From: an uncultured Mollicutes bacterium
GTDB lineage: Bacteria; Bacillota_I; Bacilli_A; RF39; UBA660
Reading direction: 5' to 3'
Assembly (NCBI GenBank): GCA_945969495.1
Contig: CAMFOH010000003.1
Location: 1-32,000 of the forward strand
DNA: 32,000 nucleotides
Shown here: positions 896-3,981 of the stretch, piece after piece
How positions within the stretch are numbered: position 1 is the first letter of the stretch
How the letters are laid out: each line of letters begins with the position of its first letter
Program-made: the position numbers and the translations under genes
The notes under the pieces: model-generated
The model's database searches: none
Told to the model about the DNA's origin: nothing
What the model saw: the letters and a program-made list of their open reading frames with translations, nothing else

Positions 896-920
896 AGATT
901 ACCTAAAAGGTAGTCTTTTT
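896..920 (+). terminator. Rho-independent terminator after the first CDS
   Basis: Stem AGATTACC (896-903) pairs with GGTAGTCT (909-916), with one G-U pair. Loop is TAAAA, followed by a T-run. Confidence 0.65.
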
Positions 921-971
921 CTATGATTTTAAGAACTTACTAAAAAATTGCGAAAAATCGTCAAAAAAGTA

Positions 972-995
972 TTTTAGATACCTTTTTAGATACCT
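972..995 (+). repeat. Perfect tandem duplication of the 12-mer TTTTAGATACCT (2 units)
   Basis: 972-983 and 984-995 are identical. The same pair occurs at 3753-3776. Confidence 0.95.
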
Positions 996-1049
996 TCTGC
1001 TAGGTTTCCCAAGTGCTGTCGGAAGCTCCCAAGTGCATTCAATAGCTGA

Positions 1050-1145
1050 AAAAAGCCACAAAATGCTCTGGAAAGCCACCGAAAAACCCACTATAAAAAG
1101 CCATGTGGAAGTGGACGCAAATATAAGCAATGTTGTGGCAAATAA
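1050..1145 (+). pseudogene. Start-less gene 3' fragment encoding a SEC-C (SecA C-terminal zinc-finger type) tail, copy A
   Basis: 1101-1145 translates to [14 protein letters not shown] followed by a stop. The frame is open only back to the TGA at 1047-1049 (KKPQNALESHRKTHYKK...). There is no ATG or RBS. Confidence 0.7.
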
Positions 1146-1146
1146 G

Positions 1147-1185
1147 CCCACAAACCTGCATAGAATAAGGGATTGCGGGTTTTTC
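1147..1185 (+). terminator. Possible terminator after SEC-C fragment A
   Basis: Imperfect stem CCCACAA (1147-1153) with TTGCGGG (1173-1179), one mismatch and a long loop, followed by TTTTT. Confidence 0.4.
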
Positions 1186-1227
1186 TATGATTGAAATTTT
1201 TAGGTAATTAAGCCTCAAAAAAGGCAA

Positions 1228-1249
1228 TTAGATAAGTTTTAGATAAGTT
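1228..1249 (+). repeat. Perfect tandem duplication of the 11-mer TTAGATAAGTT (2 units)
   Basis: 1228-1238 and 1239-1249 are identical. A related pair (TAGATAAGTT twice, period 12) lies at 2301-2322. Confidence 0.9.
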
Positions 1250-1326
1250 TTTTATCAATTTGGAATACTTTTTTAGATTACAAAATATTAATATTCCAAA
1301 AATTATAATAAATACTTTTGATTACA

Positions 1327-1335
1327 TGATATAAT
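1327..1335 (+). promoter_or_regulatory. Extended -10 promoter element (TGATATAAT) for the lipoprotein gene
   Basis: TGnTATAAT match about 20-30 nt upstream of the start codon. Confidence 0.5.
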
Positions 1336-1352
1336 GATAATGAAAGGAGTAT

Positions 1353-2222
1353 ATGATTTGTATGTCAAAAAAAATTATTAGTTTATTTTTACTTATTGTT
1401 ATGGTATTTGGACTAACAGCATGTGGAAAAAGTGAAGATAATGGAGGTTCTAATTCAATAGCAAGTAAAGAACTTAAAGCAAGTGATTTATCAATAGAAG
1501 ATTTTAAATGGGAAACAAATTCAAGCAAATGTAATGGTTATGACTGCTATGTAGTGTCTTTAACTAACAATTCTAAATATGATATTATCGGTGTTGACTT
1601 TTCATATAAAGTAAAAGATAGTGTTTCAGAAAGCCAACTAAATGTCTATGATAAATTCATGAAAGACCACGACGGATACATAGAAGAAGATGATTCTCCA
1701 AAAGATGTAACATTAGGAGCAAACAAAAATGTATTAGTTCAAAAAGGCGAACAAATAAGTGGTTTAAATTTGACCGTAGGCTTTAAAAATTGGTTTTGGT
1801 ATGATTACCCTACTGATGAACAATTTAACCTTATGGAACCAAAAGAACTTCAAATTGGAATAGTAAGTGGTAATAAATTATATATTGCTTATTATAACTT
1901 CAAAGGCAAGTCTTGGAAATTAGATAAAAAAACAGTTGTAGTTGATGAGTGGACAAAAAATGAAATAGGTAAAAAACTTAATAAGCCTAACGGACAACAT
2001 TTTGTTGTAAAAACTGATGATGATGAAGAATTTGAAATATATTCATACGGTGTTACAAAAGATATGTATAAAGAATATGTTCAAAACTTAAAAACATCAG
2101 GTTTCAACGAAGACGATTCTTATTCATCACATTTCGAAGGAACAAACTCTGATGGCTATACAGTTGAAGTTTACCATTATGAAAATGAAAAAACTTTAAG
2201 TATAAGCATTGAAAAAGAATAA
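1353..2222 (+). CDS. Lipoprotein of unknown function
   Basis: Signal peptide with lipobox LTAC (..LLIVMVFGLTACGK). GGAG at 1346-1349. The ATG at 1362 (MSKKIISL..) has better spacing than 1353 and may be the real start. Confidence 0.8.
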   Translation: MICMSKKIISLFLLIVMVFGLTACGKSEDNGGSNSIASKELKASDLSIEDFKWETNSSKCNGYDCYVVSLTNNSKYDIIGVDFSYKVKDSVSESQLNVYDKFMKDHDGYIEEDDSPKDVTLGANKNVLVQKGEQISGLNLTVGFKNWFWYDYPTDEQFNLMEPKELQIGIVSGNKLYIAYYNFKGKSWKLDKKTVVVDEWTKNEIGKKLNKPNGQHFVVKTDDDEEFEIYSYGVTKDMYKEYVQNLKTSGFNEDDSYSSHFEGTNSDGYTVEVYHYENEKTLSISIEKE

Positions 2223-2300
2223 ACATAAAACTATAAAAAAAAACCACTTTTTTTCTTTGATTGGGAAATTAAGATAATGTGATATATTAAATAAATTTTT

Positions 2301-2322
2301 TAGATAAGTTTTTAGATAAGTT
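2301..2322 (+). repeat. Tandem TAGATAAGTT direct repeat (2 units, period 12)
   Basis: 2301-2310 and 2313-2322 are identical. Same motif as 1228-1249. Confidence 0.85.
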
Positions 2323-2363
2323 GTATGAAAAAAAACTTACAATTTATCAATAAAAAATTATAA

Positions 2364-2468
2364 ATTTTAAATAAAAAAACCCAATTTAAAAGTAAAAAAT
2401 TACCTGGTTGTTTTAATATTTTACCATGTGGCAGTGGTAAGAAATATAAACAATGTTGTGGAAGATAA
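2364..2468 (+). pseudogene. Start-less SEC-C tail fragment, copy B
   Basis: 2424-2468 translates to [14 protein letters not shown] followed by a stop. The open frame reaches back only to the TAA at 2361-2363 (..KKTQFKSKKLPGCFNIL..) and has no start codon. Relative to copy A it carries an in-frame 33-nt insertion. Confidence 0.7.
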
Positions 2469-2480
2469 TAAAAACGCCCA

Positions 2481-2507
2481 AAAAACCCAATAAATACGGG
2501 TTTTTTT
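2481..2507 (+). terminator. Rho-independent terminator after SEC-C fragment B
   Basis: Stem AAAAACCC (2481-2488) pairs with GGGTTTTT (2498-2505). Loop is 9 nt, with a T-run. Confidence 0.55.
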
Positions 2508-2532
2508 AATTTTCCGAATACTTCAGAATATA

Positions 2533-2625
2533 CTTTAGATACCTTTTTGGATACCTTCCGATGAGTATCTAAAAGGTATCTAGATACCCTTTTTAGGTGT
2601 AAATTCGCAATTTTTTAGCAAGATT
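2533..2625. repeat. Rearranged copy of the 5' part of element R: one + oriented 12-mer pair followed by an inverted copy. Includes a perfect 14-bp palindrome.
   Basis: CTTTAGATACCT/TTTTGGATACCT at 2533-2556. GAGTATCTAAAA plus GGTATCTAGATACC (2575-2588, self-complementary). TTCGCAATTTTTTAG (about 2604-2618) is the reverse complement of CTAAAAAATTGCGAA at 940-954. Confidence 0.8.
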
Positions 2626-2765
2626 TTAAAATGCACTATTTCCTTTATTTATAAGGGATTGTAAGTAATTTTGCTTAGTTAGAATATAGAATTTTGTCCA
2701 TTATCAAAGTGACATAGATAAAAATTTTAAGAATAATAATATAAATATAATTTTTTGTATTTTTG

Positions 2766-2774
2766 TGCTATAAT
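2766..2774 (+). promoter_or_regulatory. Extended -10 promoter element (TGCTATAAT)
   Basis: TGnTATAAT match about 50 nt upstream of the ATG at 2826. AAGGAG RBS at 2811-2816. Confidence 0.5.
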
Positions 2775-2825
2775 TAATGTAGAGTAGTTGAAACTTGTCA
2801 TTTCAAAATAAGGAGTGTGTAGTAT

Positions 2826-3629
2826 ATGGCAATGATTAAATGTCCAAAATGTGATAAAGAAATATCAGACAAGGCAGTGAAATGTGTTCATTGTGGTCAA
2901 GAGTTAATTGAAAAAACAAATTTATTTTGTAGTGAGTGTGGAACTGAAATAAAAGATAATGAAGATATATGTAGCAAGTGTGGATGTCCTATTGATCGAA
3001 AAAAAGATTCTGAACCACAAAAAGTAGAAGTCACTGGAGTAAAAATAGGAAATGGTATTCCAAAGAAAAAAATAATAATAATTGGAGTTATTATAGTATT
3101 ACTTGTATTTGGATTTGTAGCAATAAAAAATAATAGTGATAAAAAGAAAGCAGAAGAATTGAGCAGTCAGTATAAAAGTAATTTAAGTACAATTACATTT
3201 AAGATGTTAAGTGGTGCTGCAGAAGCTGAAACATGTGGAAATAAAATAAAAAAAGTATGGTCCAATACAATATGGGAAGATGATGATCCAGAAACAGATA
3301 AATATACTAAAACTAATGGAATATTTAATGATGATTTTAATGATTCTTTAACTGCATTATTTACTGATTCTGATTTTAAAAAGATAACAGATAGTGTTGA
3401 GGAAAATCAAGGTGAAGTAAATAAGCTTATGAGGGAGATGAAGAATCCGCCGGAAGAATGGTCAGATGCTTATCGTGATCTAAAGGATTATTATGATGAT
3501 TATTTAACATTAACCAATTTGTGTACAAATCCAAGCGGAAGTTTACAGACATACTCGACAAATTTTAGTAATGCAGACACTGATGCATTAAATGGATATA
3601 ATAAGGTTAAGTCATATTTAGATTACTAG
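2826..3629 (+). CDS. Double zinc-ribbon / single-TM membrane protein with an extracytoplasmic domain of unknown function
   Basis: CPKCDK...CVHCG and CSECG...CSKCGC motifs, a TM helix (IIIIGVIIVLLVFGFVAI), a good RBS, and a terminator directly after the stop. Confidence 0.8.
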   Translation: MAMIKCPKCDKEISDKAVKCVHCGQELIEKTNLFCSECGTEIKDNEDICSKCGCPIDRKKDSEPQKVEVTGVKIGNGIPKKKIIIIGVIIVLLVFGFVAIKNNSDKKKAEELSSQYKSNLSTITFKMLSGAAEAETCGNKIKKVWSNTIWEDDDPETDKYTKTNGIFNDDFNDSLTALFTDSDFKKITDSVEENQGEVNKLMREMKNPPEEWSDAYRDLKDYYDDYLTLTNLCTNPSGSLQTYSTNFSNADTDALNGYNKVKSYLDY

Positions 3630-3648
3630 AAATTAGTAATCTTTTTTT
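3620..3648 (+). terminator. Rho-independent terminator
   Basis: Perfect 9-bp stem AGATTACTA (3620-3628) with TAGTAATCT (3634-3642). Loop is GAAAT, followed by a T-run at 3643-3648. Confidence 0.75.
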
Positions 3649-3711
3649 AAAAAATGTTGAATAAAAGACATAGCAAACTTTTTGTGTTATGTTCAATAAA
3701 TATAATGAAAT

Positions 3712-3926
3712 AGGAATTTGCTAAAAAATCACGAAAAATCGTTAAAAAAGTATTTTAGATACCTTTTTAGATACCTTCTGCTAGATTTCCAAAGTGCTGT
3801 CGGAAGCTCCCAAGTGCATTCAAGAGCAAAAAAGGACCACAAAATGCTCTCAAGAACTCCCAAAAATCCCAAATTACAAGCCATGTGGTTCGGGCAGAAA
3901 AATATAAACAATGCTGTGGAAAATAA
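3712..3926 (+). repeat. Repeat element R, copy C (paralogue of 931-1145), immediately upstream of prfB
   Basis: See copy A. Contains the perfect tandem 12-mer at 3753-3776 and a frameshifted SEC-C tail. Confidence 0.9.
3785..3926 (+). pseudogene. Start-less, frameshifted SEC-C tail fragment, copy C
   Basis: The frame is open from the TAG at 3782-3784: ISKVLSEAPKCIQEQKRTTKCSQELPKIPNYKPCGSGRKI followed by a stop. Removing one A from the A-run at about 3896-3901 restores ...RKYKQCCGK and a stop at 3924-3926. Confidence 0.65.
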
Positions 3927-3946
3927 TCCCAGTGTTTTTTTGTGTT

Positions 3947-3981
3947 TTGACATGTTATTAATACATTATTTATGATATAAT
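3947..3981 (+). promoter_or_regulatory. Candidate prfB promoter: extended -10 TGATATAAT (3973-3981), with TTGACA (3947-3952) at non-canonical 23-nt spacing
   Basis: Motif match only. The 5' UTR would be short, with the AGGTGA RBS at 3989-3994. Confidence 0.4.

Follow-up and report, generated by a model that had tools for sequence, protein, structure and literature searches.

How did three copies of the end of one gene come to stand in a row in front of another? The last codons of secA, which encode the SEC-C zinc-finger tail of SecA, occur three times upstream of prfB in a stretch of 32,000 nucleotides (nt) from an uncultured Mollicutes bacterium (contig CAMFOH010000003.1, positions 1 to 32,000; hereafter the window). 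The original prediction, made from the letters of this DNA, was that mobile cassettes had integrated one after another at the 3′ end of secA, each bringing a new tail. Comparison with related loci (designated L plus a number) supports that interpretation in its essentials. The array is very probably the product of tandem site-specific accretion, at the secA 3′ end, of mini-elements that lack an integrase, resemble cis-mobilizable elements (CIMEs) and would be mobilized in trans by phage integrases.

Three displaced secA tails

The three tail copies lie on the forward strand, at the positions given in the original prediction:

1101-1145, + strand: tail A, SEC-C tail copy
2424-2468, + strand: tail B, SEC-C tail copy
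3881-3926, + strand: tail C, SEC-C tail copy reading PCGSGRK, then an extra A in an A-run, then YKQCCGK and a stop codon

A degenerate 37-nt pattern matches tails A and B with 0 mismatches and has no further match in the 32 kb (0 expected, from 100 shuffles). The tail reading frames are closed 17, 20 and 32 codons 5′ of the proline codon in A, B and C, respectively, and have no plausible start, as the prediction had described. The first Cys of the C-P-C-G-S-G motif is missing from all three tails, so homology to secA starts at CCATGTGG. The terminator hairpins reported after A and B are also present, each with a U-run (−12.5 and −8.5 kcal/mol, respectively); folding of the window sequence gives no hairpin with a U-run after tail C.

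The claim that the copies differ mostly by synonymous changes extends well beyond this window. Codon-position entropy is 0.27/0.27/1.03 for 62 unique displaced tails from related loci, close to the 0.19/0.21/1.00 of genuine secA tails (n = 25), and 25 of 63 displaced copies still encode the canonical peptide. This pattern fits tails that were borne by the elements and would keep SecA functional after integration. Decay in place of one duplicated copy is at odds with the codon-position entropy of the displaced tails. An in-frame 33-nt indel that had been proposed between A and B is not real, because B stands in a different family of flanking sequence (the arms described below) and does not align with A beyond a repeat motif.

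Tail C, with its additional A (window 3903-3907), is identical in all eight strains seen (including L001-L007), and was therefore displaced before these strains diverged. The fixed, decayed state of this tail indicates that the array has probably never been empty since their common ancestor.

Arrays behind intact secA genes

The YitT protein of the window has residue-for-residue matches on 14 metagenome contigs. From position 3882, the CATGTGG of tail C, the sibling DNA matches the window at 98.9-99.7% identity; upstream of that position it is unrelated to the window or differently arranged. Sibling strains carry an intact secA at the head of the array. In L001 it is followed by four units, encoding XRE and DUF4190 proteins, GntR and ABC proteins, a DUF2207_C protein, and NT5C/IU_nuc_hydro and HD proteins. 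In L002 it is followed by a unit with a DNA methylase, HNH and YjcQ, and then by the NT5C-HD unit. Every unit in both loci ends with a tail copy. Close relatives thus hold different sets of cassettes, with homology resuming at 3882, which is the polymorphism that the prediction had anticipated.

A scan of 185,579 species-representative genomes with a 24-nt arm pattern yielded 48 stretches from about 44 metagenome-assembled genomes (MAGs) of uncultured gut Bacilli/Mycoplasmatota. The MAGs are labelled Bacilli, Tenericutes, Erysipelotrichaceae or Candidatus Faecisoma (a group of Mycoplasmatota incertae sedis), a coarse taxonomy. These stretches together with L001, L002 and L013 contain 28 tails joined to a full secA frame and 63 displaced tails. 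In 28 loci the secA-linked tail is intact, with an element terminator and left arm directly after it. Tails are found at every unit boundary in the window, L001, L002, L025, L028, L047 and others, with a tail-to-tail spacing of 729-3487 nt (median 1.5 kb, n = 44), and L025 and L028 hold arrays of at least five units.

Short AT-rich repeats with inverted copies are present at the locus, as would be expected if it were a generic dispersed repeat, either a repetitive extragenic palindrome (REP) or a miniature inverted-repeat transposable element (MITE), with the tails arising by chance or through local tandem duplication of the secA 3′ end. We find this scarcely credible. Arms and tails are confined to 900-3960 of the 32 kb, the arm repeats in other genomes nearly always adjoin SEC-C tails, as seen throughout the 48 stretches, and local duplication does not account for cargo that differs between units. 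The prediction that the repeat would not prove to be a dispersed one is borne out. Separately, TAGATACC-type left arms with no recognizable SEC-C tail in front occur at L037:7520-7959 and L039:5546-5985; these may be rearranged or secondary sites.

Organization of the cassettes

Each unit has the order tail (codon 3 to stop), terminator, left arm, cargo with promoter-like sequences, right arm and CCATGTGG. The window holds the distal part of an array, in which cassette 1 starts upstream of window position 1. Its features are:

5-847, + strand: cassette 1 cargo, a membrane protein of superinfection-exclusion type with a Zn-ribbon, a transmembrane segment, PASTA and two Ltp repeats
930-1100, + strand: cassette 1 right arm, P-arm-like, TAGATACC type, with direct repeats at 975-982 and 987-994
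1101-1108, + strand: junction 1, CCATGTGG, with the shared CATGTGG as putative site of overlap or crossover
1109-1145, + strand: cassette 2 tail (interior of A), replacement SecA tail, interior linked to the downstream flank
1144-1187, + strand: terminator-like hairpin and U-run supplied with tail A, fold −12.5 kcal/mol
1229-1247, + strand: cassette 2 left arm repeats, TAGATAAG twice, with motif and spacing as in the P′ arm beside prophage integrases
1353-2222, + strand: cassette 2 cargo, a lipoprotein with a C-terminal DUF6591 domain (Pfam 1.5e-11) and a lipobox-like LTAC at the N terminus
2258-2423, + strand: cassette 2 right arm, TAGATAAG type, repeats at 2301-2308 and 2314-2321, 85-88% identical to the right arms of L028 and L060
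2424-2431, + strand: junction 2, CCATGTGG, placed by same-cassette comparison
2432-2468, + strand: cassette 3 tail (interior of B), replacement SecA tail
2480-2512, + strand: terminator-like hairpin and U-run supplied with tail B, fold −8.5 kcal/mol, also found by a terminator scan
2517-2752, + strand: cassette 3 left arm, TAGATACC type, about 230 nt of conserved non-coding DNA
2826-3629, + strand: cassette 3 cargo, a double Zn-ribbon membrane protein (Pfam Zn_Ribbon_1 and DZR; PHROG 4852, 6e-30)
3711-3880, + strand: cassette 3 right arm, TAGATACC type, repeats at 3756-3763 and 3768-3775
3881-3888, + strand: junction 3, CCATGTGG; sibling-strain homology begins at 3882
3889-3926, + strand: interior of tail C, the oldest displaced secA tail, decayed, with the +1 A insertion
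3999-5106, + strand: prfB (Pfam PCRF and RF-1), the downstream boundary of the array

The motifs TAGATA-CC, -AG or -CG are repeated in the arms, and the left and right arms match within a cassette. The arm repeat pattern has 4 matches in the window against 0.23 expected. The regions upstream of tails A and C belong to the TAGATACC arm family and are 86% identical over about 200 nt. This identity is also that of the cassette 1 arm to 3711-3871, and right arms homologous to it are present at over 30 further loci. The region upstream of B belongs to the TAGATAAG family and does not align to the other two beyond the repeat motif. The distance from repeat to tail is nearly constant, at 126, 123 and 125 nt for A, B and C.

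The TAGATACC left arm of cassette 3 is 70-90% identical to about 40 loci. In an alignment of 12 loci a 60-nt block at 2533-2590 is near-invariant (57 of 60 columns identical); GATACC sites lie within it in both orientations, and an inverted partial copy of the right arm comes next. This inverted copy (2565-2632) covers about 50-60 nt of the right arm (GGTATCTA...TTCGCAATTTTTTAGCAAG; compare 926-969 and 3720-3767), so these cassettes have terminal inverted repeats besides the direct arm repeats. Further conserved non-coding blocks in the same arm, CCTTTATTTATAAGG and TGTCCAYTGYCAAAGTG (window 2640-2752; alignment columns ~240-320; 12 loci), could be sites for accessory proteins or an outward promoter. 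An Rfam scan of 1-4300 gave only sub-threshold chance matches. In one short metagenome contig (L009:1-40, compared with window 2524-2600) the cassette 3 left arm is without the 46-nt segment between two GATACC repeats, reflecting either an arm variant or assembly collapse.

Probable exchange at a shared CATGTGG

Where does one unit end and the next begin? Copies of the same cassette in three to four genomes give an answer on both sides. On the right they are identical up to ...AAAAAGCCATGTGG, after which each takes on the sequence of its downstream neighbour. On the left, identity covers the tail (from position 9), the terminator and the left arm, regardless of the upstream neighbour, whether that neighbour is secA (L001, L021) or the right arm of another element (L042, L049). 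The predicted replacement tail is recovered here, in that tail sequence from position 9 on goes with the unit that lies downstream of it. Consistent with this, tail pairs with 0-1 interior mismatches share the downstream 50 nt in 53% of cases and the upstream 50 nt in 8%.

Sequence linked to a cassette stops at CCATGTGG, and the remainder of the tail belongs with the next unit. The exchange point would lie in or at CATGTGG, which is the only segment common to secA, all right-arm families and the type 2 arms (see below) at the junction. We propose that recombination takes place at this shared CATGTGG, the left edge of the 45-nt tail. The placement rests on same-cassette comparisons; a population-wide per-position scan is ambiguous at tail positions 9-24.

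The regularity of the repeats raises the alternative that cassettes are spread by homologous recombination through tails and arms, for example after transformation or transduction, with no integrase involved. Every array offers repeated homology for such a process (tails of 45 nt, arms of 170-230 nt at 70-90% identity), and the ambiguity at tail positions 9-24 could reflect gene conversion. We nevertheless hold this route to be improbable, as there is no homology to the left of CATGTGG at secA-linked junctions, where secA coding sequence meets unrelated right arms. The same cassette has also been placed exactly there behind secA genes that are only ~70-73% identical, and arm motifs that match per cassette, and match the type of a prophage integrase, point to recognition by a protein.

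Phage integrases at the same site

The original prediction stated that the window holds no recombinase gene, and tblastn with two integrase types together with Pfam detected none; tRNA genes are likewise absent from the window. Integrases are lacking from the window cassettes and from most arrays examined. In other genomes, tyrosine integrases are found at the same site, inside prophages and small elements with integrase and excisionase (Int+Xis), beside the same arm repeats.

Type 1 integrases have 375-387 amino acids and are convergent to secA, in the order secA tail, hairpin, two arm repeats, int. Two copies of TAGATA-AG, -CG or -CC followed by a convergent tyrosine integrase are seen in L067, L069, L073, L075, L078, L079 and L085. 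The integrase matches PHROG_1, and the arm-binding domain PF14657 is on record for several type 1 homologues. Neighbouring genes encode an S24/CI-like repressor, a Cro-like helix-turn-helix (HTH) protein, Erf or SSB, NinB, a DnaD/DnaB_2-type replication protein and an HNH endonuclease, and a replisome organiser is among the helper modules at the secA site. By their gene content these neighbourhoods are temperate prophage modules. No conjugation genes were seen in the helper elements at the secA site. The helpers that we see are therefore temperate phages, not the integrative and conjugative elements (ICEs) that the prediction had taken as an analogue.

The arm motif beside the integrase varies. 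TAGATAAG repeats adjoin int in L013/L073 and L069, TAGATACG repeats in L067, L075, L077 and L078, TAGATACC repeats in L079, L080 and L085, and TACATACG repeats in L071. The TAGATACC-type integrases form one clade, with at least 92% identity within it and 57-61% to others, and have RAWFFKISY in an N-terminal segment where the others have RCWFxKVQY. In L069 and L013 the secA tail, a hairpin and TAGATAAGTTTTAGATAAG precede int, and the left arm of cassette 2 (TAGATAAGTTTTAGATAAG) equals this phage P′ arm. The TAGATA repeats would then be arm-type binding sites for Int. Among the best 80 of 470 integrase relatives in viral contigs, SEC-C tails adjoin only those about 50% or more identical to the L013 integrase, and relatives with 47% identity or less are without such tails. 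Scans of viral contigs with the TAGATAAG right-arm pattern gave one chance match in a large open reading frame (ORF; L065), the rest being known prophage, and no free phage genome with attP.

Type 2 integrases (426-430 amino acids; Arm-DNA-bind_4, SAM_3 and Phage_integrase domains in L042 Int) occur together with an HTH_17 Xis-like gene and a PemK toxin. They lie on the secA strand just before the tail copy and have a different right arm. Integrase-less derivatives of this type exist as well, for example the last unit of L001 (L001:8640-8790). The type 2 examples at L042:2935-4212 and L071:9557-10849 are unrelated to type 1 and have the same CATGTGG target; the type 2 right arm carries GTGGAC/GTCCAC palindromes and ATAATAC-type repeats.

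Arrays of small units, most of them with a single gene and very varied in cargo, would also be expected of an integron-like platform, in which promoterless cassettes with structured attC-like sites would be taken up by a recombinase fixed in the chromosome near secA. Several features make this very hard to sustain. No recombinase adjoins the array in the window, L001 or L002, and the upstream neighbour of secA is an hpf-like gene, not an integrase. The units have their own terminators and promoter-like sequences, their repeats are direct arm-type motifs and long conserved non-coding blocks, not attC-like imperfect palindromes, and the cognate integrases are phage-borne. The original prediction had left CIME-like and integron-like mobilization side by side; the CIME-like half stands, with integrases at the same site that fit mobilization in trans, and the integron-like half, with neither IntI nor attC, falls away.

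Cargo and horizontal spread

The cargo of cassette 1 (ORF 5-847) matches Pfam Lipoprotein_Ltp (1.6e-52) and PASTA, and PHROG 4980, annotated 'superinfection exclusion' (1e-57). An internal 134-nt direct repeat (557-690 and 707-840, 75% identical) corresponds to its two Ltp domains. The PHROG 4852 match of cassette 3 is to a phage family of unknown function; the cassette 3 protein is found identical on four metagenome contigs of 1.0-1.2 kb that end inside the arms and are not circles.

Cargo varies greatly across the loci. When ORFs of at least 110 amino acids are clustered, with cargo and host flanks taken together, 153 of 195 clusters are singletons. Pfam scans of the ORFs from the fetched loci, with recombinases covered by tblastn instead, gave GNAT, NUDIX, Fic, MazF, NERD, restriction-modification methylases, ABC transporters and class I lysyl-tRNA synthetase among the 25 top families listed. 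Two different genomes have this synthetase (PF01921, 1e-110) as cargo in a TAGATACC-type cassette (L021:3294-4862 and L049:5061-6632).

The Ltp cassette of the window recurs in other species. It is 97.6% identical in L014, where secA is 69.9% identical, and 92.9% in L027, where secA is 73.4% identical, L002 standing in for the window species in both secA comparisons as the window holds no secA; in L017 it is 95.1% identical, and prfB-yitT 75.4%. In L014 and L027 it lies directly behind secA. The cassette has evidently spread horizontally between species.

These observations bear on whether the cassettes are instead dead prophage remnants, immobile since their interiors were deleted in situ, in an array that merely records past phage integrations. 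Much in the window would suit such a history: it has no integrase, its cargo matches PHROG phage families, one of them a superinfection-exclusion moron, the left arm of cassette 2 equals a phage P′ arm with int missing, and tail C is decayed. Some arrays also contain fragmented integrases (L049). We consider it unlikely all the same. The same cassette, with CATGTGG boundaries on both sides, occurs in several species next to different neighbours and at an identity far above that of host genes. Arms are 70-90% conserved over about 40 loci while cargo, counted with its flanks as above, is almost never shared. The range of unit sizes is narrow, and random deletion would not spare both arms so regularly.

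A model for accretion at secA

Comparison of the loci, at the level of sequence, establishes that there is one target, that boundaries are fixed, that the elements bring their own tails and terminators, that arms match within each unit and that strains are polymorphic. It likewise places cognate phage integrases beside the same arm motifs at the same site, and one cassette in several species. From these observations we propose the following mechanism. The last codons of secA would be the attachment site of temperate phages and small Int+Xis elements with lambda-type tyrosine integrases. Each element would carry, on its secA-proximal side, a replacement for the last 12 codons and stop, followed by its own terminator, so that integration would leave SecA intact. 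A new integration at the secA-linked CATGTGG would shift earlier units and their tails toward prfB, and the newest unit would therefore lie beside secA and the oldest tail beside prfB. The window would then comprise the end of cassette 1 (TAGATACC arms), cassette 2 (1109-2431, TAGATAAG), cassette 3 (2432-3888, TAGATACC) and the ancestral tail. As SecA is essential, an element would have to encode a working zinc-finger tail, and this dual constraint on the attachment site would explain why 'dead' tail copies still look like coding sequence. Units without an integrase would be excised and integrated in trans by phage Int, and could move between cells by co-excision with a neighbouring prophage.

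Several observations weigh against this model. The secA gene predicted at the head of the array is confirmed in siblings with the near-identical flanks described above, but it is not visible upstream in the window itself, and exact-protein look-ups with the products of cassettes 1 and 2 gave no longer contig. The loci examined showed neither circular forms nor empty sites nor attP junctions. In the population-wide linkage scan, tail positions 9-24 are linked to neither flank. The TAGATAAG and TAGATACG integrases form no clean clades, so that co-variation of arm motif and integrase is seen for the TAGATACC type only. The left arm of the TAGATACC cassettes is itself more complex than the two-repeat arm beside TAGATACC-type phage integrases, and its inverted sites and inverted right-arm copy are absent from that simple arm. 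Even with these points, we judge integrase-less accretion with phage helpers to be very probable.

A broader reading, which we put forward tentatively and with somewhat more doubt than belief, is that the arrays are an exchangeable cassette pool for temperate phages of gut Bacilli, a functional analogue of the integron built on lambda-type att sites. A unit of 0.7-3.5 kb would be a plug-in with a SecA tail, terminator, arms, promoter and a single gene for an accessory or defence function. Such units would be inserted, excised and co-excised with the prophage by phage integrases whose arm specificity matches theirs, and the cassettes would act as swappable morons spread across dozens of species.

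Relation to known systems

The SCCmec and pseudo-SCC islands of staphylococci (SCC, staphylococcal cassette chromosome) lie at the 3′ end of rlmH (orfX), use Ccr large serine recombinases, have no arm-type sites and comprise units of 3-60 kb. They resemble the secA arrays in serial insertion at the 3′ end of a conserved gene, in units bounded by a gene-end repeat and in the many units without a recombinase. The secA site differs from them in its tyrosine integrases with repeated arm motifs. In integrons, IntI is encoded and attI lies beside the array, and cassettes end in attC. Integron arrays are similarly ordered, with small, mostly single-gene units, very diverse cargo and the newest unit at the insertion point, whereas the secA arrays have no IntI, attI or attC, carry their own terminators and have lambda-type arm repeats that are apparently recognized.

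A close published parallel comes from Streptococcus thermophilus, where ICESt1/ICESt3 and CIMEs accrete at the 3′ end of fda (Pavlovic 2004, Bellanger 2011 via PMC13651849; PMC5704250, PMC7563491). This accretion shares with the secA arrays a target at the 3′ end of a housekeeping gene, tandem accretion and att-flanked units that lack an integrase and need a related one. The secA system differs in its target, the SEC-C tail, and in its helpers, which are prophages and small Int+Xis elements and not conjugative. Its units are also far smaller (median 1.5 kb, mostly one gene), more numerous and more diverse, and its hosts are uncultured gut bacteria.

Tycheposons of Prochlorococcus target tRNA and tmRNA genes, are multi-kb and usually carry an integrase and a replication module (10.1101/2020.12.28.424599). 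As at secA, successive insertions into one site displace the older elements inward, partial copies of the target gene mark the junctions, degenerate remnants lack the integrase and adaptive cargo is common to several lineages; the secA arrays differ from them in having a protein-coding tail as target and in being dominated by integrase-less one-gene cassettes. The ssrA islands of Dehalococcoides target tmRNA, are large and carry an integrase (PMC3146451). Like the secA units they are tandem, with direct repeats of the 3′ end of a single-copy gene, and mobilization by the integrase was deduced from comparative genomics (PMC3146451). Published tandems of phages and ICEs at rum, rlmD and tRNA sites are similar in that phage integrases act on arrays with shared att sites. 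Those tandems consist of full phages with full ICEs; miniature cassettes are not among them and 'secA' occurs 0 times in the text.

In our full-text literature searches neither secA nor the SEC-C tail turned up as a described attachment site, but coverage is incomplete and the negative amounts to no more than absence of evidence. Accretion of elements in tandem at a specific site, with derivatives that lack an integrase, is a known process. What appears to be new here is the secA target, the host group and the phage origin of the att arms and, above all, the miniaturization into hundreds of different one-gene, att-complete cassettes.

If the model holds, the array would be a hot spot for the exchange of single accessory genes, with single-nucleotide precision, in reduced-genome gut bacteria that have not yet been grown. 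A joint scan of cargo and flanks in these loci gave functions such as superinfection exclusion, restriction-modification, toxins, Fic, GNAT and transporters, and the lysyl-tRNA synthetase places a translation enzyme on a mobile one-gene unit. The fixed frame of secA, CATGTGG and prfB could serve as a marker to type strains and to search metagenomes for accessory and anti-phage genes. The pairs of integrase and att site, with three arm specificities on one target, are candidate orthogonal integration tools.

Genes downstream of the array

From 3999 onward the window carries housekeeping genes, namely prfB, yitT, ftsEX, a pcsB-like gene, uvrB, uvrA, lgt, whiA, parAB, ychF, ssb, rplI, dnaB and rlmH. 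Within prfB there is a programmed +1 frameshift site, CTTTGAC at 4062-4068, with GGAG at 4054-4057. The reading of this site as CTT TGA C means that TGA is a stop codon here, despite the Mycoplasmatota-like labels. The genes parA, parB, ychF, ssb, rplI, dnaB and rlmH lie at 18709-31103, 15-27 kb downstream of the array, and the hot spot may therefore be near the replication origin region. The rlmH gene of the window, the counterpart of the SCCmec target in staphylococci, has no array beside it.

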